Below are positions 16,995 through 51,330 of a DNA stretch of 64,000 nt, in pieces. The notes under the pieces were generated by a model. It worked only from the letters and a program-made list of their open reading frames with translations, made no database searches and was not told the origin of the DNA. Source of the stretch: an uncultured Lachnospiraceae bacterium (lineage in GTDB: Bacteria; Bacillota; Clostridia; Lachnospirales; Lachnospiraceae); the NCBI GenBank assembly GCA_934339365.1, contig CAKRHW010000004.1, forward strand, positions 36,148 through 100,147, written 5' to 3'. The position numbers were made by a program, and so were the translations under genes. How positions within the stretch are numbered: the stretch's first letter is position 1; the number at the start of each line of letters is the position of its first letter.

Positions 16995-17112
16995 AGATTT
17001 ACATAAATAAGATGCCTCCGTATTGCTACACAGCAAAGCTGTTCCCGCAATACGGCAAATATTCGGAAACCGCAGATTTACTTCGTAAATCGCTAATTCC
17101 TCATATTTGGGC

Positions 17113-17171
17113 GGGTCCCAAATTTATAAGCCATATTGTGCAAGCACAAATGGCTTATAAACTTTGGACCC
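17113..17171. repeat. Palindromic hairpin element, copy 2 (near-perfect 22-bp stem), just downstream of the gltS stop
   Basis: GGGTCCCAAATTTATAAGCCAT ATTGTGCAAGCACAA ATGGCTTATAAACTTTGGACCC. Confidence 0.8.
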
Positions 17172-17178
17172 TGGCATC

Positions 17179-18366
17179 TTATATAACATTAATAAAGAGT
17201 GTTATGACCAGGCTGTTGATAAAGTCGGCAAACAGGCTTCCTACAAGTGGAATGAGCAGATAGGCTTTTACGGAAGGGGCATATTTGTCGCAGACGGCCT
17301 GCATATTTGCCATTGCGTTTGGAGTTGCTCCCATACCGAAACCGCAGGTTCCTGCAACCAGAACTGCTGCATCGTAATCCCGGCCCATAATATTGAATTC
17401 TATAAAATAAGTAAAGACGCATATGAGAACGACCTGGGCTGTCAGTAAAAGTATGAGAGGCAGGGCAAGGGAAGACAGTTCCCAAAGCTTCAATGTAATC
17501 ATAGCCATTCCTAAAAACAGGGAAAGGCAGATACCACCGAGATCATTGATTTCTCCCATGTGAATGGTGTAGGAACCACTGTATTCGGAAATATTACGAA
17601 TCAATGCAGCGGCAAGCATGGCACCGATATAAATCGGAAATGTCATACCTGTTTTCGTAAGTAAAGCAGAAAAAATAGTTCCTAACCCAATTGCCAGAAT
17701 TAGCTGAAATACTGCATAAGCATACATATTTGTATGACGTTCATGCTTTTTTTCGTCTTCGACTAAAAGACTGTCATCTTCCTGTACAGCGGTGGATAAT
17801 AAATTTCTTTTTTCGATGAGTCTTTTTCCTAATGGTCCACCAACTAAACTTCCGAAAATTAATCCAAAAGTAGCTGCAGCGGTACAGATGGTAGTTGCTC
17901 CTTTGACATTAAAATCCTCTAAAACAGGGCCGAAGGCTCCGGCGGTTCCATGTCCACCAACCATTGGAACGGAGCCGGTACACATACCGACGAGAGGATT
18001 TAAACCGAGTACATGAGATAATCCTACTGCAACCAGATTTTGTGAGACAATTAACGTGATAATCAGCCCGAGAAAAATAATCATAGATTTTCCACCACTT
18101 TTTAGTACCTTAAGATTGGCCTGAAAACCAACGGAGGTAAAGAAAAATACCATGCAGACTTCGCGTAATGTATCATCAAAGGAAAATTCAGCAATTCCTG
18201 TTACGTAGCAGATACAGGTGGTGATTGCAAATAGTAAACCTCCAATTACCGGTGCAGGAATACAAAATTTTTCTAGAAAAGCAATTTTATGTTTTAAAAA
18301 GTTACCAAGCATGAGTACCAGAACAGCAACTGCTAAGGTCTGATACATGTCTAAATGAATTTTCAT
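17179..18366 (-). CDS. gltS: Sodium/glutamate symporter (ESS family)
   Basis: About 395 aa with a 10-12 TM profile. The N-terminus MYQTLAVAVLVLMLGNFLK...PAPVIGGLLFA and the block GGHGTAGAFG are typical of GltS. Confidence 0.85.
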   Translation of the reverse strand: MKIHLDMYQTLAVAVLVLMLGNFLKHKIAFLEKFCIPAPVIGGLLFAITTCICYVTGIAEFSFDDTLREVCMVFFFTSVGFQANLKVLKSGGKSMIIFLGLIITLIVSQNLVAVGLSHVLGLNPLVGMCTGSVPMVGGHGTAGAFGPVLEDFNVKGATTICTAAATFGLIFGSLVGGPLGKRLIEKRNLLSTAVQEDDSLLVEDEKKHERHTNMYAYAVFQLILAIGLGTIFSALLTKTGMTFPIYIGAMLAAALIRNISEYSGSYTIHMGEINDLGGICLSLFLGMAMITLKLWELSSLALPLILLLTAQVVLICVFTYFIEFNIMGRDYDAAVLVAGTCGFGMGATPNAMANMQAVCDKYAPSVKAYLLIPLVGSLFADFINSLVITLFINVI

Positions 18367-43530: not shown

Positions 43531-43575
43531 AAATAATAGAGAAATACTTGAAGAAATAAGGCTGATAACGATTTC

Positions 43576-43617
43576 AAAAAAGGACCGTACATGATTTCAT
43601 GTTACGGTCCTTTTTTT
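43576..43617. terminator. Bidirectional-type terminator after the HD-GYP gene
   Basis: AAAAAAGGACCGTACATGA TTT CATGTTACGGTCCTTTTTTT. Confidence 0.85.
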
Positions 43618-43812
43618 GCCTGAACGAGTCTTTTTTATTTCCATTTTTCGCCATTTTGTGCCTATTCTACAAGAATTTCGCAGGTGATGAAATGTATCAT
43701 GCCTGTGATAGTTTTCCTTGAGAAAAATGAGATAGAATTGAAAACGTTTTCGCAAATTATAGTTTCTTTTTTTTCGGACAGACAGTATCATAGCACTAAC
43801 AAAACAACACGA

Positions 43813-43882
43813 GATGCTGTAGCCGCTGGAAGGGCATAGGCTTGCAAAGCTGAAGTTGTGGGTTCGACTCCCACCAGTATCA
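43813..43882 (+). tRNA. tRNA-Cys(GCA)-like gene with atypical features
   Basis: Manual cloverleaf. The acceptor stem is GATGCTG/CAGTATC (7 bp, one G-U) with U8. The D-arm is GCC(G)-CTGGAA-(G)GGC. The anticodon arm is TAGGC-TTGCAAA-GCTGA, with one mismatch and one G-U. The variable loop is AGTT and the T-arm is a perfect GTGGG-TTCGACT-CCCAC. The discriminator is A (bacterial tRNA-Cys normally has U73), A14 is missing and no CCA is encoded. Confidence 0.5.
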
Positions 43883-43944
43883 CTCGAATAATAAACGTTT
43901 TTTATTTGGAATATTTCAATCAAAAGTAAAGGAGAATGAAGATT

Positions 43945-45126
43945 ATGGGAAAATTATTTACATCAGAATCAGTAACAGAAGGACATCCAGACAAGATAGC
44001 AGATCAGATTTCAGACGCAATTCTGGATGAATTATTAAAGCAGGATCCTTATTCAAGGGTAGCAGCAGAGACAACAGTAGCAACAGGAATTGCACTTGTT
44101 GTTGGCGAGATTACGACAAAAGCATATGTGGATATTGCAAAGATTGCAAGAGATACCATCAGAGAAATTGGCTATGTAAACAATGTAGATGGATACAATG
44201 CAAATTCAATTGCGGTACTGACATCAATTGATGAACAGTCAGCAGATATTGCATTAGGTGTGGATCAGGCGTATGAATCGAAACAGAAAGGAGCAACAGA
44301 AGATTTTGGAACAGGTGCAGGAGATCAGGGAATTATTTTTGGTTATGCAACCGATGAAACACCAGAGTATCTTCCGCCGGCAATTTCATTTGCACACAGA
44401 CTTACCAGACAATTAGCAAAGGTCAGAAAGGATGGAACACTTACTTATCTGAGACCGGATGGAAAATCTCAGGTAACCGTTGAGTTTGCAGAAGATGGAC
44501 AGACAGTAAAGAGAATTCATACAATTGTTATTTCGACGCAGCATGCAGAAGGGGTAAGTCTTGAACAGATTAGAAAAGATATCATTCAGTATGTGATTCG
44601 ACCGGTTATTCCAGAAGAATTATTAGATGATGAAACTATTTATTATGTAAATCCAACAGGAAGATTTGTGATTGGAGGACCACAGGGAGATTCAGGATTA
44701 ACAGGAAGAAAAATTATCGTAGATACTTATGGTGGAACAGGACGCCATGGTGGTGGAGCATTTTCAGGAAAAGATCCTACAAAGGTGGATCGTTCAGCAG
44801 CTTATGCAGCAAGATGGGTAGCAAAGAATTTAGTGGCTGCGGGTGTGGCAAAAAAGATTGAAGTGGAATTTGCTTATGCAATTGGAGTGGCAAAACCGGT
44901 ATCAATTGCAGTAGAAACATTTGGAACCGGAGCAATAAAAGACGAGAAAATAGTGGAAATCATAGAAGCGATTTTTGATCTTCGTCCGGAAGCAATTATT
45001 GAGGCACTCGATCTGAGAAGACCAATCTATAAGCAGACAGCAGCGTATGGACATTTTGGACGTACAGATATTGATTTACCTTGGGAGCATTTAGATAAGG
45101 TAGAAGAAATCAAGAAATATATTTAG
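43945..45126 (+). CDS. metK: S-adenosylmethionine synthase
   Basis: [25 protein letters not shown] and [19 protein letters not shown]. The start was set at the second ATG for RBS spacing. Confidence 0.95.
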
Positions 45127-45141
45127 TAAGGAATGAGAAAT

Positions 45142-45897
45142 ATGGTTAAAAAGTTATTGAGAAAATTAGAAGAAATACTCCCAATCCTGATACTTTTGCT
45201 CATTTGGTTTTTCGTGACGGAAAGGGAGGACTACAATAGTCTTCTTTTTCCAAAATTATCACAGGTTTTTGAAACAGCATTTGAAAAGGTAAAAGATGGC
45301 TCATTACTTTTGGCCGTTGGAATTAGTTTAAAAAGGGTAGTGTCCGGTTATATCATTGCTGCCATTTTAGGAATTGGTCTTGGAATCATCATTGGCTTGT
45401 CAGAACATGTATATCGAATGACAGATTTACTGATTCATATTATAAAACCAATTCCTCCCATCGCCTGGATTCCGCTTACCATTTTGTGGATGGGAATTGG
45501 AGAAGAAGCAAAAGTGTTTTTAATCTTTCTGGGAGGATTTTTCGCCATCTTGTTAAATACGTTAGATGGCATAAGATATACAGATAAAAAATTACTTGAG
45601 GTTGCAAAGGTAATGGAGACACCTAAAATAAAATATATTTTTCAGCTCATCATACCGGCTGCACTTCCTTCCATTTTTACAGGATTGCGGGTCGCAATGG
45701 GAACCTGCTGGACCTGTGTTGTAGCAGCGGAACTTGTTGCTTCTAGTAGTGGCGTGGGGTATATGATTTCCAATGCAAGGAATTTTGGGCAGCTGGATGT
45801 CGTGATTGTTGGAATGATATCGGTAGGTATTGTTGGAAAAATTATGGATGTAATTTTGAAACGAATCGAAGGGAGGGTGCTTGTTTGGAACAGTTAA
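45142..45897 (+). CDS. ABC transporter permease (NitT/TauT-type)
   Basis: Six-TM profile with a BPD-type loop (EVAKVMETPKIKYIFQLIIPAALP). Confidence 0.8.
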   Translation: MVKKLLRKLEEILPILILLLIWFFVTEREDYNSLLFPKLSQVFETAFEKVKDGSLLLAVGISLKRVVSGYIIAAILGIGLGIIIGLSEHVYRMTDLLIHIIKPIPPIAWIPLTILWMGIGEEAKVFLIFLGGFFAILLNTLDGIRYTDKKLLEVAKVMETPKIKYIFQLIIPAALPSIFTGLRVAMGTCWTCVVAAELVASSSGVGYMISNARNFGQLDVVIVGMISVGIVGKIMDVILKRIEGRVLVWNS

Positions 45898-46655
45898 ATA
45901 AATATTATCTGAAAGTGAAAAATCTGAGTAAAAATTTTGGCGAAAGAAACATTTTGAGTGACATAAGTTTTCAGGTTTCAAAAGGGGAATTTATATGTAT
46001 TGTTGGGAGCAGCGGATGTGGGAAAAGCACCCTCCTAAGAGCAGTATCAGGAATTGATACAGACTATGAAGGCAGTGTTTTGGTCAATGACAAAGAAGTG
46101 AAAAAGCCTTCCAAAAAGATAGGATATATTTTCCAGGAAAACAGGTTATTTCCCTGGCTTACCGTTGAGGAGAATGTAAGTTTCGCCTTAGAGAAAGAAA
46201 GGAAAAAAGAAAAGAGAAAAAAAGCAGATGAAGCAATCAAAATGGTTGGACTTGAATTTGCAAAAAAACAATATCCAAAGACTTTGTCCGGAGGAATGGC
46301 ACAAAGAGCGAATATAGCAAGGACACTGGTAAATAAACCGGAAATACTTTTATTAGATGAACCATTTGGAGCACTCGATGCATTTACGAAAATTCATTTG
46401 CAGGAAAAATTATGTGAGATAAGAAGTGCAGAGGGTACAACCATGATTATGGTAACGCATGATATTGAAGAGGCTGTGTATCTTGCAGACCGCATTATCA
46501 TTCTGGATAAGGAGCCGGGAAGAATAAAGAAAATTATTCAGGATGATCTGCCAAGACCGAGAGACCGGAATAGTCCGTATTTTAATGAATTAAGAAAAAA
46601 GGTTTACGGGTATTTCTTTGAAACACATGAAATTGTTGAAGATTATAGTATATAG
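45885..46655 (+). CDS. ABC transporter ATP-binding protein (NitT/TauT-type)
   Basis: Walker A GSSGCGKST, signature LSGGMAQR and Walker B LLLDEPFGALD. A TTG start follows GGGAGGG. Confidence 0.85.
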   Translation: MEQLNKYYLKVKNLSKNFGERNILSDISFQVSKGEFICIVGSSGCGKSTLLRAVSGIDTDYEGSVLVNDKEVKKPSKKIGYIFQENRLFPWLTVEENVSFALEKERKKEKRKKADEAIKMVGLEFAKKQYPKTLSGGMAQRANIARTLVNKPEILLLDEPFGALDAFTKIHLQEKLCEIRSAEGTTMIMVTHDIEEAVYLADRIIILDKEPGRIKKIIQDDLPRPRDRNSPYFNELRKKVYGYFFETHEIVEDYSI

Positions 46656-46666
46656 GAGGAACGGAT

Positions 46667-47674
46667 ATGAATAAAAAGAAAATAAAAAAATTAGCGATAC
46701 TTGCAATTGCGTCAGCATTAGCAATCAGTTCCCTGGTCGGATGCAACGCAGAAAAAAAGAAACAAGAGACAGAAAGTTCTTCTAATAAGAAATTAAATAT
46801 TGCAATTCAGCCGGTGGTAGGTTTTTTGCCTTTATATATTATGAAAGACAATCAATCTTTAGAGAAGGCACTTTCGGATGCAGGATACCATGTGGATGTG
46901 ACCTATACAGAATATGAGTCAGGACCTCCCGAAAATGAGGCTTTTGCAGCAGGACTTGCAGACATCGGTGTATTGGGAAATGTTCCGGCTTTGACAGGAA
47001 TCGCTTCCGGTCAGGACAGAAAAATAATAGGAATTGCTTATAACGGAGAAGCGACGGAAGCCATTATTGTACCAAAAGATTCAGATATAAAAAAGGTATC
47101 TGATTTAAAGGGAAAGAAAATAGGGCTGGTTGTTGGATCCATTGCACAAAATCTCGTTTTGGCTGTGTTTCAGGAGAATAAACTTAACTTTAGTGATGTA
47201 ACTTTCGTTAATTTATCTGCAGGAGAACAACAACAGGCTTTAGAAACAAAGGAAGTAGATGCAGTAGCAACCTGGGAACCAACCATTTCGAAACTTACTG
47301 CAGATGGCAAAAATGTTGTATTAGCAGATGGTACAGGTGTATTTTTAGGTGAGAACCCGATTATTGCAAGAGGAAAGTACATAGATGCAAATCCGGAAAT
47401 TGTTCAGATATTTTTCGATGAATACAAGAAGGCGGTTCAGTTATTGAAAGATGATACCGAGAAATATGCGGAGAAGTATAGCAGTAATTTCGGATTAGAA
47501 AAAAATATTATTCGTGCAGCACTTACGCATGTGAATGAGCCGGTGGCGATTACGGAAGAAGATGTCAGTGATTTGCAGAATACGGCAGAATTTCTGAAAA
47601 ATGAAAATTTGATTTCGGCGGAAATAAAAGTAAAGGATTATGTGGATTTTTCATTTAGCAAAAAAGTAAAATAG
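46667..47674 (+). CDS. ABC substrate-binding lipoprotein (NMT1/THI5-like, sulfonate/nitrate/taurine-type family)
   Basis: Lipobox SSLVGC. Its size and position after the matching permease and ATPase fit this role. Confidence 0.7.
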   Translation: MNKKKIKKLAILAIASALAISSLVGCNAEKKKQETESSSNKKLNIAIQPVVGFLPLYIMKDNQSLEKALSDAGYHVDVTYTEYESGPPENEAFAAGLADIGVLGNVPALTGIASGQDRKIIGIAYNGEATEAIIVPKDSDIKKVSDLKGKKIGLVVGSIAQNLVLAVFQENKLNFSDVTFVNLSAGEQQQALETKEVDAVATWEPTISKLTADGKNVVLADGTGVFLGENPIIARGKYIDANPEIVQIFFDEYKKAVQLLKDDTEKYAEKYSSNFGLEKNIIRAALTHVNEPVAITEEDVSDLQNTAEFLKNENLISAEIKVKDYVDFSFSKKVK

Positions 47675-47704
47675 CAAAGCAGTAAAGTAGGAGAGTGAGT
47701 CATT

Positions 47705-48985
47705 ATGATAAAAGCCAGAGATAAAGATTGGAGAAAAAAGGAACCGACGTTAAAAGAGGTCATAAAAAAATATTCGGATATGCCTGCAAGCTGGATACTG
47801 AAGGCAGATATTCAAAGGAGAGGACTTTGGTATACCAAAAATGCAGTGGAAAAGATTGATCCGGCGATTCATGCGGTTCATCAGGATGGAAAAGATTTAT
47901 TTAGAAACAATGTGGATTTTGTACCGGAAGGTCTGATATGGAATGATGGAAGTTATTTAATTGCAAATTTTGACTTTGATCAGGAACATCCGGCAAGAGA
48001 TCCTTATGTCGTAGATTATGTGGATGGAAAATATGTCATAATCGATGAGGGAGAAATCGTAGGAGATTTTCAGGGCTATTGGGAAAAACCTGATTTTTAT
48101 AATAAAAAAGCATCCAATGGACAACCACTGAGCACTTATGTCCAGGCAAGACCACAGCGGATAGAGGTCAGTGTCAATAAGTATTGCCATTTTTGGGATT
48201 GCCCGAAAGAAGGATGCAAGTACTGCCCACTGACTCCTTCGTTTAAGGCAAGCGGAAGTACAGAAGAACAAAGTGATTTGAAATACATGCGGGAAGCATT
48301 TGCAGAGGCATGGAAACAAAAAGGAAGATATACGCAGGTGCTTCTTACGGGAGGTTCCATTCTTTCAGGGGAAGAATTGTTTGATGATGAGTTAGAAAGC
48401 TATATCAGAGTCCTAAAAATGATAGGTGAATTTTTCCCGGGGAAAAGATTTCCGTCACAGTTGATTTCGTCCGCATTCAGTGTAAGACAGCTAGAAAGAC
48501 TTTACAAAGAAACCGGATTAACAATGTATACAACAGATATTGAAGTTTTTGACAAGGAAAAATTTGAATGGATTTGCCCGGGAAAGGCACATAAACTTGG
48601 ATATGATGAGTGGAAGAAGAGATTAATTGCAGCAGTAGATATTTTTGGAAAAGGAAATGTAACATCAGGGGCAGTGCTTGGAACAGAACTTGCCACACCA
48701 AATGGATTCCGTTCAGAAGACGAAGCGTTTGAAAAAGTTGTAGAGGAAGCAGAAAGTATCATTTCTCATGGAATTGCACTGGCTGCAAATATCTGGAGAC
48801 CAACACCAAAGTCAATTTTTCAGAATCAGATTTCTCCGTCGCTGGATTATTTTGTAAGGGTATACAGAGAGTTTGACCGATTACAAAGAAAATATATTAC
48901 CAACCCTTATAATGATGACTTTAGAAGATGCGGTGCCCATGTAGGACTTGATTTGATGAGAACTTATGAGGAGGTTCAACTATGA
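47705..48985 (+). CDS. Uncharacterised radical-SAM-like enzyme with a non-canonical Cys cluster
   Basis: The cluster C-X4-C-X4-C-X2-C (YCHFWDCPKEGCKYCPL) is at nt 48185-48226. It is followed by the GGE-like LLTGGSIL. No standard CX3CX2C motif is present. Confidence 0.45.
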   Translation: MIKARDKDWRKKEPTLKEVIKKYSDMPASWILKADIQRRGLWYTKNAVEKIDPAIHAVHQDGKDLFRNNVDFVPEGLIWNDGSYLIANFDFDQEHPARDPYVVDYVDGKYVIIDEGEIVGDFQGYWEKPDFYNKKASNGQPLSTYVQARPQRIEVSVNKYCHFWDCPKEGCKYCPLTPSFKASGSTEEQSDLKYMREAFAEAWKQKGRYTQVLLTGGSILSGEELFDDELESYIRVLKMIGEFFPGKRFPSQLISSAFSVRQLERLYKETGLTMYTTDIEVFDKEKFEWICPGKAHKLGYDEWKKRLIAAVDIFGKGNVTSGAVLGTELATPNGFRSEDEAFEKVVEEAESIISHGIALAANIWRPTPKSIFQNQISPSLDYFVRVYREFDRLQRKYITNPYNDDFRRCGAHVGLDLMRTYEEVQL

Positions 48986-49434
48986 TTTTAAATAAGGAAT
49001 TAGTAGAAATAATCAATGATAAAGAGACGTTAAAGTCTGTAGCAACAGTAAGCAGAGAGGGAATTCCGCATGTAGCATACAAAGGAAGTCTTCATGTGGA
49101 AGAGGATAAAATTGTATTTTATGATTTGATTCAAAGCTCACAGATTAATAAAAATCTGGTTCATGCAATCTGGTTTGATGGAAAGGTTGCAATCAATCTT
49201 TTATCGAAAGACAAACGGAGTTTTTTAATCATTGGAAAACCTGTAAAATCTGTGACAGCCGGTAAGGCCTTTGAAAAAATATATGTTGCTCTGCAGGAGA
49301 AAAAAGGTGTGGAGGTGGATTTGTCTGCCATCTGGTATATCGAGCCATTAAGTGTCAGAGAAGAAACATATACAGCCCGCAGAAAAGAGGAAGAAGAAAA
49401 ATATCCATATATCAGACACTTAGACAGAGTCTGA
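48982..49434 (+). CDS. Pyridoxamine-5'-phosphate-oxidase-like (split-barrel flavin-binding) family protein
   Basis: Size and N-terminal pattern (TLKSVATVSREGIPHVAYKGSLHVEEDKIVFYD). ATGA overlap with the preceding gene. Confidence 0.5.
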   Translation: MILNKELVEIINDKETLKSVATVSREGIPHVAYKGSLHVEEDKIVFYDLIQSSQINKNLVHAIWFDGKVAINLLSKDKRSFLIIGKPVKSVTAGKAFEKIYVALQEKKGVEVDLSAIWYIEPLSVREETYTARRKEEEEKYPYIRHLDRV

Positions 49435-49565
49435 AGAGAAAACATAAGTGCAGAATTTACCGGATTCTGTAAGGATGATTTTTTTCTAAATGGCTGGAAG
49501 AATGGTAAATTTTTATTGTGGGGTAGAATGCTTTAATGATATAATTTCAGGGAAGGAGGAGAAAG

Positions 49566-50639
49566 ATGTCTGTAAAACAAATAGCAAAAATGGCCGGGAC
49601 ATCACCGGCAACTGTTTCGCGAATCTTAAATAATCCTAATTATCATTGTACCGATCCAAGTATCAGAGAAAAAGTCTGGAATGCGGCAATGGAATTAAAT
49701 TATGTACCGAACGAGGCTGCAAGAAATTTAAAAAAGGGAGTGAAAAATCCGGCAGAAAAGATGCGTTATATACAAGTATTGATGACCAGGACAGAACGAA
49801 GTCAGACAGATCCTTTTTTCACAGAAGTTTTAAGGATTGTTGAGTCAGAAATACATAGAAGTTCCTGCATTTTATCGCAAGTGTGGTATATGTCAGTTTT
49901 TTCAAGTGATAAACAGTGCAGATTAAATAATGTGAATCAATTAGTAGAGGAATTGTATCAGGAAACAGAAGGAAAAAGTGATGGATTAATTGTAATAGGA
50001 AGATGCAATAAAGAGGCACTTAAAATTTTAAAAGCAAAATTTAAAAATTTAGTTTCGATTAACCGAAATCCAACCAATCGGGAAATCGATGAAGTAACCT
50101 GTGATGGTAAAAAGATAGCAACGACAGCTATTGAGTATTTAATTGGTCTGGGACATAATGATATCGCTTATGTAGGTGAGTGTCATGGAGAGTCCAGATA
50201 TAAGGGATATGTCGATACTTTAATGCGACATGACTTAGAACTCAATCCTGCATATATTTTTGAAACAAAGCAGACAGAAAAAGCAGGATATGAGATTATG
50301 GAGAAAATATTAAAATCAGAAGATATTCCTACGGCGATTTATTGCGCCAATGATATTACAGCAATTGGAATGCTAAAGGCACTGGCAAAGTCAAAAAATA
50401 AATATCTGAATATCTCAGTCATATCCAGTGATGATATCGAACAGGCGCAGTTTGCCAGACCGATGCTTACCAGTGTTGCATTGCCAAAGACAGAGATGGC
50501 CAGATTTGCAGTATATTTGCTGACAGACAGGATAAAAGGACAGCATCATTCCGTTACAACGATGGAATTAGAAGGACATCTGGTGGTAAGAGAAAGCTGC
50601 GTAGATGTAGAAGAAAGCTACTGGAATTATATGATTTAG
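49566..50639 (+). CDS. LacI-family transcriptional regulator
   Basis: The N-terminus is VKQIAKMAGTSPATVSRILNN. The C-terminal domain looks like a periplasmic-binding-protein-type sugar-binding domain. Confidence 0.85.
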   Translation: MSVKQIAKMAGTSPATVSRILNNPNYHCTDPSIREKVWNAAMELNYVPNEAARNLKKGVKNPAEKMRYIQVLMTRTERSQTDPFFTEVLRIVESEIHRSSCILSQVWYMSVFSSDKQCRLNNVNQLVEELYQETEGKSDGLIVIGRCNKEALKILKAKFKNLVSINRNPTNREIDEVTCDGKKIATTAIEYLIGLGHNDIAYVGECHGESRYKGYVDTLMRHDLELNPAYIFETKQTEKAGYEIMEKILKSEDIPTAIYCANDITAIGMLKALAKSKNKYLNISVISSDDIEQAQFARPMLTSVALPKTEMARFAVYLLTDRIKGQHHSVTTMELEGHLVVRESCVDVEESYWNYMI

Positions 50640-50673: not shown

Positions 50674-51330
50674 ATGTTTTTGACTGGAAAATTATCAGGT
50701 AAATTTGAAACATATGATACATTGAAAGAGTCAGAAAGAAATGATGTGATAGTTGGATATTCAGGACCAATTGAAACCAGATTGCGAGATTTCGGGGTAA
50801 TGATTCCTGATGTTGATTATCCGGAATCAATCTTGAAATATCTTGGAAGAAAGATATGGAAATCAACGATGAATACAATTAATAATAATCCTGATTTGTG
50901 GAACGTATTTGTAAAACCGATACGAAGAAAATCATTTAAAGGCAGAGTGATAAGAAGTGCTACAGACTTAATCGGATGTGGTGCTACAAATGGAGATCAG
51001 GAAATATATGTTAGTGAAATATTAAATTTTGTTTCGGAATACAGAGTGTTTGTAAGGTATGGAGAAATTCTGGATGTAAGACATTATACGGGTGACTGGT
51101 CAATTTTTCCAGATGCAGAAACAATAGCAAATTGCGTGAAGGAGTACAAAGAAGGAATAAATACATATGCAATTGATTTTGGTGTGACAGATAAGGGAAC
51201 GACAAATCTTATTGAAGTTAATGTATCGGGTGTCATTGGTTCCTATGGCCTTGATCCCAATATGTATGCCAAATTTATGTCAGCCAGATGGTCAGAGTTA
51301 ACTGAAACAGAGGATGAATGCAGATTTTAA
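50674..51330 (+). CDS. ATP-grasp-like protein (DUF4343-type)
   Basis: The pattern FVKP...KSFKGRV...YRVFV....AIDFGV....LIEVN resembles small ATP-grasp proteins. There is no convincing RBS, so the start is uncertain. Confidence 0.5.
   Translation: MFLTGKLSGKFETYDTLKESERNDVIVGYSGPIETRLRDFGVMIPDVDYPESILKYLGRKIWKSTMNTINNNPDLWNVFVKPIRRKSFKGRVIRSATDLIGCGATNGDQEIYVSEILNFVSEYRVFVRYGEILDVRHYTGDWSIFPDAETIANCVKEYKEGINTYAIDFGVTDKGTTNLIEVNVSGVIGSYGLDPNMYAKFMSARWSELTETEDECRF

Follow-up and report, generated by a model that had tools for sequence, protein, structure and literature searches.

The classical enzymes of assimilatory desulfonation, SsuD and TauD, need oxygen, and sulfonates (for example taurine, isethionate, 2,3-dihydroxypropanesulfonate (DHPS), and sulfoquinovose with its products) rank with the most abundant sulfur compounds of guts, the rumen and sediments. 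We have analysed a 64,000-nucleotide stretch of DNA from an uncultured Lachnospiraceae bacterium (GenBank assembly GCA_934339365.1, contig CAKRHW010000004.1, positions 36,148 to 100,147 of the forward strand; hereafter the window), in which six genes at 43945-49434 encode a second S-adenosylmethionine (SAM) synthetase, MetK2, an ATP-binding cassette (ABC) importer, a variant radical-SAM protein and a split beta-barrel partner. With somewhat better than even confidence, we propose from comparative sequence evidence that these genes form a sulfur-limitation module of strict anaerobes, in which sulfonate-type import would be joined to oxygen-free cleavage of the C-S bond and to the recycling of SAM by MetK2.

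The closest described arrangements are the ssuEADCB and tauABCD operons of Escherichia coli, Pseudomonas and Bacillus, which encode an SsuA-family importer together with a two-component desulfonating enzyme, as the window operon would if the role proposed here for its enzyme is right. Their proteins, like several of ours, are sulfur-poor, as expected for genes induced by sulfate starvation, and their presumed product, sulfite, feeds cysteine synthesis. They differ not only in the oxygen requirement of SsuD and TauD, but also in that SsuE is an NAD(P)H:FMN reductase, whereas the operon described here, in strict anaerobes, has a radical-SAM and split-barrel pair, a SAM synthetase of its own and a regulator of the LacI rather than the CysB/Cbl type. 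A nearer precedent is IsrBHDK of Rhodobacter capsulatus, which, together with SsuCAB, allows oxygen-independent assimilation of a sulfonate, isethionate, by way of an SsuABC-type importer and with a requirement for a radical-SAM protein (PMC11423573). The coupling of such an importer with a radical-SAM protein is shared, as the oxygen-independent use of sulfonate would be; however, IsrHDK is nitrogenase-like and IsrB is a BciD-like protein with the canonical motif, whereas none of the six window operon genes is nitrogenase-like, and the radical-SAM protein belongs to the NF045502 family and is paired with a split-barrel protein. We therefore rejected an IsrB-like role for it, given the different family and the lack of a nitrogenase-like partner in the operon. 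The isethionate sulfite-lyase IslAB and the other glycyl-radical sulfonate lyases also cleave C-S bonds anaerobically to sulfite, by radical chemistry started by a radical-SAM protein, as we propose here, but there the radical-SAM protein serves only as the activator of a large glycyl-radical enzyme. The window module contains no such enzyme, so its radical-SAM protein would itself be the catalyst.

The earlier note on this DNA, made from its letters alone, had described six consecutive genes on one strand, separated by 30 nt or less or overlapping, and the coordinates of the open reading frames (ORFs) bear this out. The tightly packed genes, and the hairpin that follows them, are:

43945-45126 (alternative start 43936), plus strand: metK2, SAM synthetase, 393 aa from the ATG at 43945 (TIGR01034)
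45133-45897, plus strand: ABC permease of the nitrate/sulfonate/taurine group (PF00528)
45885-46655, plus strand: ABC ATPase with a TTG start (PF00005, 132.6 bits)
46667-47674, plus strand: SsuA-family lipoprotein binding protein (TIGR01728, 195 bits)
47705-48985, plus strand: variant radical-SAM protein, 426 aa (NF045502, 181 bits)
48982-49434, plus strand: split beta-barrel (PNPOx/HupZ-like) partner, 150 aa (PF01243, 26.9 bits; structural model)
49451-49486, plus strand: weak terminator-like hairpin (CAGAAT...ATTCTG), with a T-run 9 nt downstream

The gap between metK2 and the permease gene is 6 nt, and the other gaps are 11 and 30 nt. The TTG start of the ATPase gene lies in the stop region of the permease gene, giving a 13-nt overlap, and the radical-SAM and partner genes meet in an ATGA overlap, both as the note had seen. 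A consensus scan of the plus strand found no terminator inside the block, again in agreement with it. The hairpin beyond 49434 has an AT-rich stem and folds no better than shuffled sequences (z = -0.5), and is taken here as a candidate end of the unit only.

The main clue to the role of this operon is the scarcity of sulfur in three of its products. In a crude proteome of the window genome, consisting of 1,591 long ORFs with a median Cys + Met content of 4.2%, the partner ranks first for low sulfur, with neither residue, MetK2 second, with one, and the binding protein fifth, with two, namely one Met and the Cys of the lipobox. The third rank is held by the O-acetylhomoserine sulfhydrylase of the same genome (2 Cys + Met in 435 aa), and the product of the adjoining gene, CysK, is also sulfur-poor (4 in 310 aa):

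C16:32927-34234 of the window's own genome (L096:2928-4256), minus strand of L096: O-acetylhomoserine sulfhydrylase
C16:34391-35323 of the window's own genome (L096:4392-5324), minus strand of L096: CysK

Low sulfur content is what would be expected of these two enzymes of sulfur assimilation, and their appearance here validates the signal. The depletion recurs across the related loci described below, with median counts of 0 Cys and 1 Met for MetK (n = 48), 0 and 0 for the partner (n = 83) and 1 and 3 for the binding protein (n = 50). The content of flanking genes is about 4%, the radical-SAM protein retains its functional cysteines and the LacI regulator shows no depletion. The earlier note had suggested a dedicated SAM-consuming salvage or modification pathway for an imported substrate; the dedicated supply of SAM and the imported substrate survive from that suggestion, but the nearly sulfur-free MetK, partner and binding protein point to sulfur starvation rather than to generic salvage or modification.

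MetK2 scores 575.8 bits against TIGR01034 (cut-off 309.4) and contains PF00438, PF02772 and PF02773. The ribosome-binding site AGGAG at 43930-43934 suits the ATG at 43945, and counted from this likely start MetK2 has no internal Cys or Met, so that its Cys + Met count falls to 0. The window genome has two metK genes, 67% identical, and the housekeeping copy has 18 such residues, as compared with the single one counted for MetK2; two metK genes were likewise found in all six operon genomes tested (the window genome and five others). Among 48 operon-linked MetKs, 40 have one Cys or Met in approximately 390 aligned residues, with outliers of 2-7, whereas the count in six housekeeping copies is 10-18. 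A maximum-likelihood tree unites 45 operon-linked MetKs in a single clade (100/100 support) on a long stem, within which the operon copies of Treponema are nested among those of Lachnospiraceae, and places the Lachnospiraceae housekeeping copies in a separate clade; a few operon-linked MetKs, from Clostridium, Desulfitobacterium and Desulfuromonadaceae, fall outside the main clade. Judged from these comparisons, metK2 is a dedicated second copy, and the branching order indicates that its clade has moved together with the operon. Sulfur-sparing isozymes are known from the cyanobacterial phycobiliproteins and from yeast Pdc6 under sulfur limitation. MetK2 resembles these in that it is the paralogue of an abundant enzyme, has been depleted of Cys and Met and is apparently linked to sulfur-starvation genes, and differs from them in that SAM synthetase itself consumes methionine. 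A literature search found no sulfur-free SAM synthetase.

To compare the block across genomes, loci were collected from one genome per species, giving 78 loci with homologues at 43-91% identity, and synteny was determined in two ways, by searching the window proteins against the loci and by clustering the neighbouring ORFs. The hosts, all of the named ones being anaerobes, are Lachnospiraceae, Clostridium, Desulfitobacterium, Caproiciproducens, Syntrophomonas, Treponema, Synergistaceae and a metagenome-assembled genome of Desulfuromonadaceae. By ORF clustering, the radical-SAM gene was recovered in 74 of the 78 loci, the binding protein gene in 70, the ATPase gene in 66, the permease gene in 64 and the partner gene in 62; in 46, a MetK gene is found no more than 6 kb from the radical-SAM gene. 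The block is co-conserved in at least 78 genomes with one core set throughout, metK and the downstream genes being strongly conserved together. The module genes are on the same strand in nearly all loci, and in most the partner gene comes after that of the radical-SAM protein. Most often the genes are arranged as metK, radical-SAM, partner, binding protein, permease, ATPase, and the order in the window is found only in its nearest relatives. The occurrence of the same genes together in 78 loci of several phyla is far beyond what chance would give.

The earlier note had pointed to a C-X4-C-X4-C-X2-C cluster in the 426-aa protein and to a possible radical-SAM fold with non-standard spacing. The string is present (C161, C166, C171 and C174), but when 27 homologues with identities as low as 48% are aligned, C166 varies, whereas C161, C171 and C174, which could ligate a [4Fe-4S] cluster, are invariant, as are C291 and C409. 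The family motif is therefore CX9CX2C (C161-X9-C171-X2-C174), which retains three of the four cysteines first proposed and does not match the canonical radical-SAM motif CX3CX2C. The GGS/GGE-like motif that had also been noticed is kept as TGGS, of the GGE SAM-binding type, at G216-G217-S218, with G217 invariant and G216 nearly so among the same homologues. In profile searches, the protein scored 181.3 bits against the NCBIfam model NF045502, variant_rSAM (cut-off 125; 180.7 bits in the genome search), and 33 bits against TIGR04043, the MSMEG_0568 family, to which it is distantly related; against PF04055, Radical_SAM, it reached 20.3 bits, below the gathering threshold of 29.5, but many of its homologues carry a precomputed match to this Pfam family. 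It matched no characterised non-radical family.

An AlphaFold model of the protein, built on the homologue alignment, was of good quality (pLDDT 87, pTM 0.88), and its 50 best Foldseek matches in the PDB were all radical-SAM enzymes, with E-values down to 4e-8, approximately 250-280 aligned columns and TM-scores of about 0.4; they include biotin synthase, MgmA, RlmN, ThiH, HydG, lipoyl synthase and NifB. By the model, the fold search and NF045502, the fold suggested by the note is the right one and the protein is a member of the radical-SAM superfamily, with a predicted core at approximately residues 150-400 that follows a distinct N-terminal domain of about 145 aa. It is without a close characterised relative: in the sources examined, NF045502 and TIGR04043 are catalogue names with no function, partner or context attached, and a literature search on the variant radical-SAM or NF045502 family returned nothing relevant. 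An exhaustive profile search of 1.84 billion proteins gave 121 representative clusters at E <= 1e-30, and a member above cut-off was found in 3 of 300 genomes evenly sampled from the window's class, the window genome included; the family is real but patchy.

Two distant members carry additional domains, P0199 (717 aa) an N-terminal GntR-FCD regulator domain, possibly a fusion created by the gene call, and P0237 (563 aa) a C-terminal SCP2 lipid-binding domain; this is a hint that the substrates of some subfamilies are hydrophobic. In six loci (L009, L029, L031, L064, L073 and L074), SsuA-type ABC genes also adjoin more distant paralogues of the radical-SAM protein, at 24-28% identity, so the link between this branch and the importer is wider than the core family.

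The 150-aa partner had been called a PNPOx-like flavoprotein. Its model (pLDDT 91.6) shows the split beta-barrel fold, and its score against PF01243, PNPOx_N, is slightly below the gathering threshold of 28.1; HupZ is the closest structure found by Foldseek (TM-scores 0.65/0.80), with F420 reductase and small FMN-binding proteins also among the matches. The structural neighbours bind FMN, heme or F420, and of the original description the fold is borne out, but not the term flavoprotein. The partner occurs as a fused C-terminal domain in three long members of the radical-SAM family, P0130, P0139 and P0144 (hhalign probabilities 88-91%, E ~1e-6), and in approximately 12 loci the radical-SAM gene is present twice, both copies having a partner gene of their own behind them. 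From these fusions and paired duplications, we take the partner to be an integral component of the enzyme.

The assignment of the transporter to the NMT1/TauT type holds: the permease and the ATPase fall in the nitrate/sulfonate/taurine group, and the binding protein matches both the Pfam family NMT1/THI5 and TIGR01728, SsuA_fam, for which the cut-off is 163.5 bits. All the binding proteins tested pass this cut-off, including those only 25-30% identical to that of the window, and proteins from distant loci give 225 and 177 bits. The nearest matches among solved structures are the SsuA proteins of Xanthomonas citri (3E4R) and E. coli (2X26). In the former, Gln36, Gly68, Gly86 and Ser141 coordinate the sulfonate (PMC3839906); in the window protein, Gly68 and Gly86 are kept, Ser141 is replaced by Ile and Gln36 lies outside the alignment, the contacts being mostly made by the main chain. 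The conserved glycines support an anionic ligand, but do not prove a sulfonate.

The proposal that we favour is built on observed features of these loci, namely gene content, conservation, fold, paralogy, the sulfur-free composition and the fusions. The SsuA-type importer would take up an organosulfur anion, most probably an aliphatic sulfonate, and the two-component enzyme formed by the CX9CX2C radical-SAM protein and its split-barrel partner would break the C-S bond without oxygen, as an anaerobic counterpart of SsuD/SsuE. The inorganic sulfur freed, probably sulfite, would enter the route through sulfite reductase, CysK and O-acetylhomoserine sulfhydrylase. Every turnover of the radical-SAM protein would convert SAM into methionine and 5'-deoxyadenosine, and MetK2 would turn this methionine back into SAM, so that no sulfur would be lost. 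Because MetK, the partner and the binding protein are nearly without Cys and Met, the machinery could be made when sulfur is scarce. The substrate, the product, the cleavage of SAM, the partner's role as an electron donor or in cofactor binding, and the regulation are what we infer. The suggestion in the earlier note, that SAM is supplied specifically to a variant radical-SAM enzyme whose imported substrate may be a sulfonate, thus stands as the leading hypothesis, with metK a second copy and co-conserved.

A number of observations weigh against a sulfonate-desulfurizing module. Membership of SsuA_fam leaves the ligand unfixed, Ser141 is Ile, and the glycines are common to nitrate and phosphate binders; moreover, binding and secreted proteins tend to be Cys-poor anyway, which weakens the composition signal of the binding protein. 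The permease and the ATPase lie below every NCBIfam equivalog cut-off, with their best matches to an organometallic system (see below). The closest structure to the partner is the heme-binding HupZ. It is also unusual for a sulfur regulon to have a regulator of the LacI type. Finally, the organism can also assimilate sulfate: the window genome encodes CysD, CysN and an AprAB-like adenosine 5'-phosphosulfate reductase in addition to a NirA-type sulfite reductase, on C9 (L098) and C8 (L092), and so has a predicted complete route of assimilatory sulfate reduction. The sulfite reductase would let the cell use sulfite, but with these genes present it is not specific evidence for sulfonate use, and an argument for sulfonate-derived sulfite from the absence of sulfate assimilation, which we had considered, was rejected because CysDN and the AprAB-like reductase are encoded.

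The recurrent neighbours of the module count in favour of a role in sulfur limitation. They include genes for an O-acetylhomoserine-sulfhydrylase-like protein (11 loci, directly downstream of the module), a ThiF-like adenylyltransferase (9 loci) and CysK (4 loci), and for regulators of the LysR (5 loci) and Rrf2 CymR/IscR-like (5 loci) types. Nitrogenase-like genes of the NifD/K type, the kind used for cleavage of methylthio-alkanes or isethionate, lie a few kilobases from the module in 4 loci (including L028:17971-19344); they may encode organosulfur reductases of the Mar or Isr type, in which case several anaerobic sulfur-scavenging systems may be clustered. The sulfhydrylase-like and nitrogenase-like neighbours would also suit a module that answers sulfur starvation with a thioether or methylthio compound as its substrate, from which methanethiol or sulfide would be freed, built into methionine by the O-acetylhomoserine sulfhydrylase and converted into SAM by MetK2. 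Routes from methanethiol to methionine are known from methylthio-alkane reductase (PMC13753814), and in most loci metK and the radical-SAM gene are immediate neighbours. We nevertheless consider such a substrate unlikely, since every binding protein tested falls in the SsuA sulfonate-binding family and keeps the anion-binding glycines, neutral volatile thioethers would have no need of an ABC importer, and CysK is a recurrent neighbour as well.

The chance is smaller again that the radical-SAM protein and its partner are a maturase or a cofactor-building pair, engaged for instance in sulfur insertion or in modification of the partner, and merely co-regulated with sulfonate import under sulfur stress. 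The structural neighbours of the enzyme do include the sulfur-inserting biotin synthase and lipoyl synthase and the maturases HydG and NifB, it has the two extra invariant cysteines C291 and C409, and the partner is paired with it or fused to it. However, structural matches with TM-scores of this order are generic and carry little functional information, and no other candidate for a C-S-cleaving enzyme is conserved in the module; the compound imported would then be of no use to the module.

A pathway unrelated to sulfur, in which an imported pyrimidine, vitamin precursor, or organometallic or selenium compound is salvaged or modified with SAM, the pyrimidine being an option named in the earlier note, would be consistent with the NMT1/THI5 match of the binding protein and with the best NCBIfam matches of the other two importer components. 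For the permease, these are SaoP (201 bits against a cut-off of 295), SsuC (164 against 347) and TauC, and for the ATPase SaoA (240 against 360), NtrCD and the SsuB type (208 against 395), all below their cut-offs, so that the equivalog level of SsuC and SsuB is not reached either. SaoP and SaoA belong to the selenocysteine-assisted organometallic (SAO) system (bioRxiv 10.1101/2022.07.06.499078), whose transporter is of the same nitrate/sulfonate/taurine group; none of its SaoL, SaoB, SaoT, SaoC and SaoE is among the six operon genes, and with scores so far below cut-off and the marker genes absent from the operon, we rejected an assignment to this selenoprotein system. Because a pathway of this kind would also leave the sulfur depletion of three proteins and the Cys and Met biosynthesis neighbours and regulators unexplained, we regard it as very improbable. 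That metK is an incidental neighbour, a housekeeping gene beside a transporter operon, is conceivable for a gene that is essential, highly expressed and free to lie at any site, but is effectively excluded by the comparative data, in which it is a second copy in all six genomes and recurs near the radical-SAM gene across phyla, forms a clade of its own with a long stem, has lost its sulfur amino acids and lies only 6 nt from the next gene.

Upstream of metK2, and again downstream of the operon, the window contains features that suggest how the proposed sulfur-limitation module might be regulated:

43563-43576: distal LacI-type operator-like box, TGATAACGATTTCA, with at most two mismatches to the consensus TGAAAACGTTTTCA
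43739-43752: proximal LacI-type operator-like box, TGAAAACGTTTTCG, whose core GAAAACGTTTTC is a perfect 12-nt palindrome
43786-43791, plus strand: putative promoter -10-like hexamer TATCAT, which aligns with TATGAT of the closest relatives
43813-43883, plus strand: extra tRNA-Cys(GCA) gene (Rfam tRNA, 44.8 bits; ARAGORN)
49566-50639, plus strand: LacI-family regulator gene (PF00356, PF13377)

Both boxes are upstream of the -10-like hexamer, and the position of the proximal one is kept in the leader alignment of relatives. In the 450 nt upstream of operon-linked metK genes, the near-palindromic consensus box is approximately 120-fold enriched (27 matches in 20.8 kb, as compared with 9 in 838 kb), and the boxes mostly occur in pairs about 90-105 nt apart. 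A strict palindrome core, AAACGTTT, was tried as a universal operator and rejected in favour of the looser consensus, being found upstream in 4 loci only. The lacI gene is preceded by a perfect TATAAT, as a promoter of its own, and by a strong ribosome-binding site, and its homologues (44-84% identity) adjoin the module in 13 of the 48 loci scored, or in 18 loci by ORF clustering. The presence of boxes correlates with that of a LacI homologue in the locus (Fisher p = 0.0016, a significance that is overstated, as related loci were treated as independent). The LacI-family protein is a candidate repressor of the operon, and in Lachnospiraceae it probably controls the promoter through paired operators. 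A second Lachnospiraceae group (L046, L049, L053, L056, L059 and L063) is without LacI-type boxes and shares, approximately 45-125 nt upstream of metK, a conserved leader block of the form TTATCACTGACAATAA...CTTACGTAATTTTCAG...GATAGTATC, which suggests a different regulator in that group.

The tRNA-Cys gene, the second in the window genome, lies in the leader, after the promoter region and ahead of metK; it does so also in L004 (L004:99-170), and is an insertion relative to L001-L003 and L021. It has a discriminator A, as compared with U in the canonical copy, and a G-U pair in the acceptor stem. Further tRNA-Cys genes flank the module in L032 (8701-8773), L036 (14382-14452) and L050 (10802-10873), and L005 (8380-8450) has a degenerate one with an 8-nt anticodon loop. 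The tRNA-Cys that recurs near the operon in several genera may be poorly chargeable and linked to cysteine shortage. We found no SAM or T-box riboswitch in the window leader at the Rfam gathering threshold or at E <= 1, and none upstream of metK in seven distant loci. A conserved RNA element in the leader was also rejected, the shared blocks of 50-75 nt upstream of metK being promoter/operator regions or the tRNA-Cys.

We put forward more tentatively, and with somewhat less than even confidence, a wider reading of the proposed sulfur-limitation module, in which it would be a further and purely radical-SAM-based form of anaerobic sulfonate desulfurization, organized as a self-sufficient starvation kit. 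This would comprise the sulfur-free MetK, a sulfur-free partner that possibly replaces an Fe-S ferredoxin as the electron donor, and a co-transcribed atypical tRNA-Cys that possibly signals or buffers cysteine shortage.

Two other features of the window lie apart from the module. A gene for an ATP-grasp protein of the R2K clade, at 50674-51330, begins 34 nt after lacI, and since none of the 78 related loci has a counterpart we place it outside the module. On the minus strand, 17010-17179 is a strong match to the Clostridiales-1 small RNA family (RF01699, 128.5 bits).

In a count made in 2024, only three oxygen-independent desulfonating enzymes were listed, Xsc, IslAB and Isr (PMC11423573), and the predicted enzyme of the window module resembles none of Xsc, IslAB and IsrBHDK. 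The module is thus a concrete and easily testable candidate for another oxygen-free desulfonation route, and it is found in cultured gut and rumen genera, among them Roseburia, Blautia, Pseudobutyrivibrio, Treponema and Clostridium; Roseburia hominis, Pseudobutyrivibrio sp. OR37, Blautia sp. MSJ-19 and Clostridium paraputrificum are carriers in culture. If the proposal is true, it would add a new type of reaction to the radical-SAM superfamily and, on the wider reading, answer the question of how clostridia and gut or rumen anaerobes use sulfonates as a source of sulfur. The sulfur-free MetK is a remarkable example of elemental economy, methionine and cysteine having been lost from the very enzyme that uses up methionine, and a Cys + Met content near zero may offer a simple marker with which to find sulfur-starvation regulons in uncultured anaerobes.

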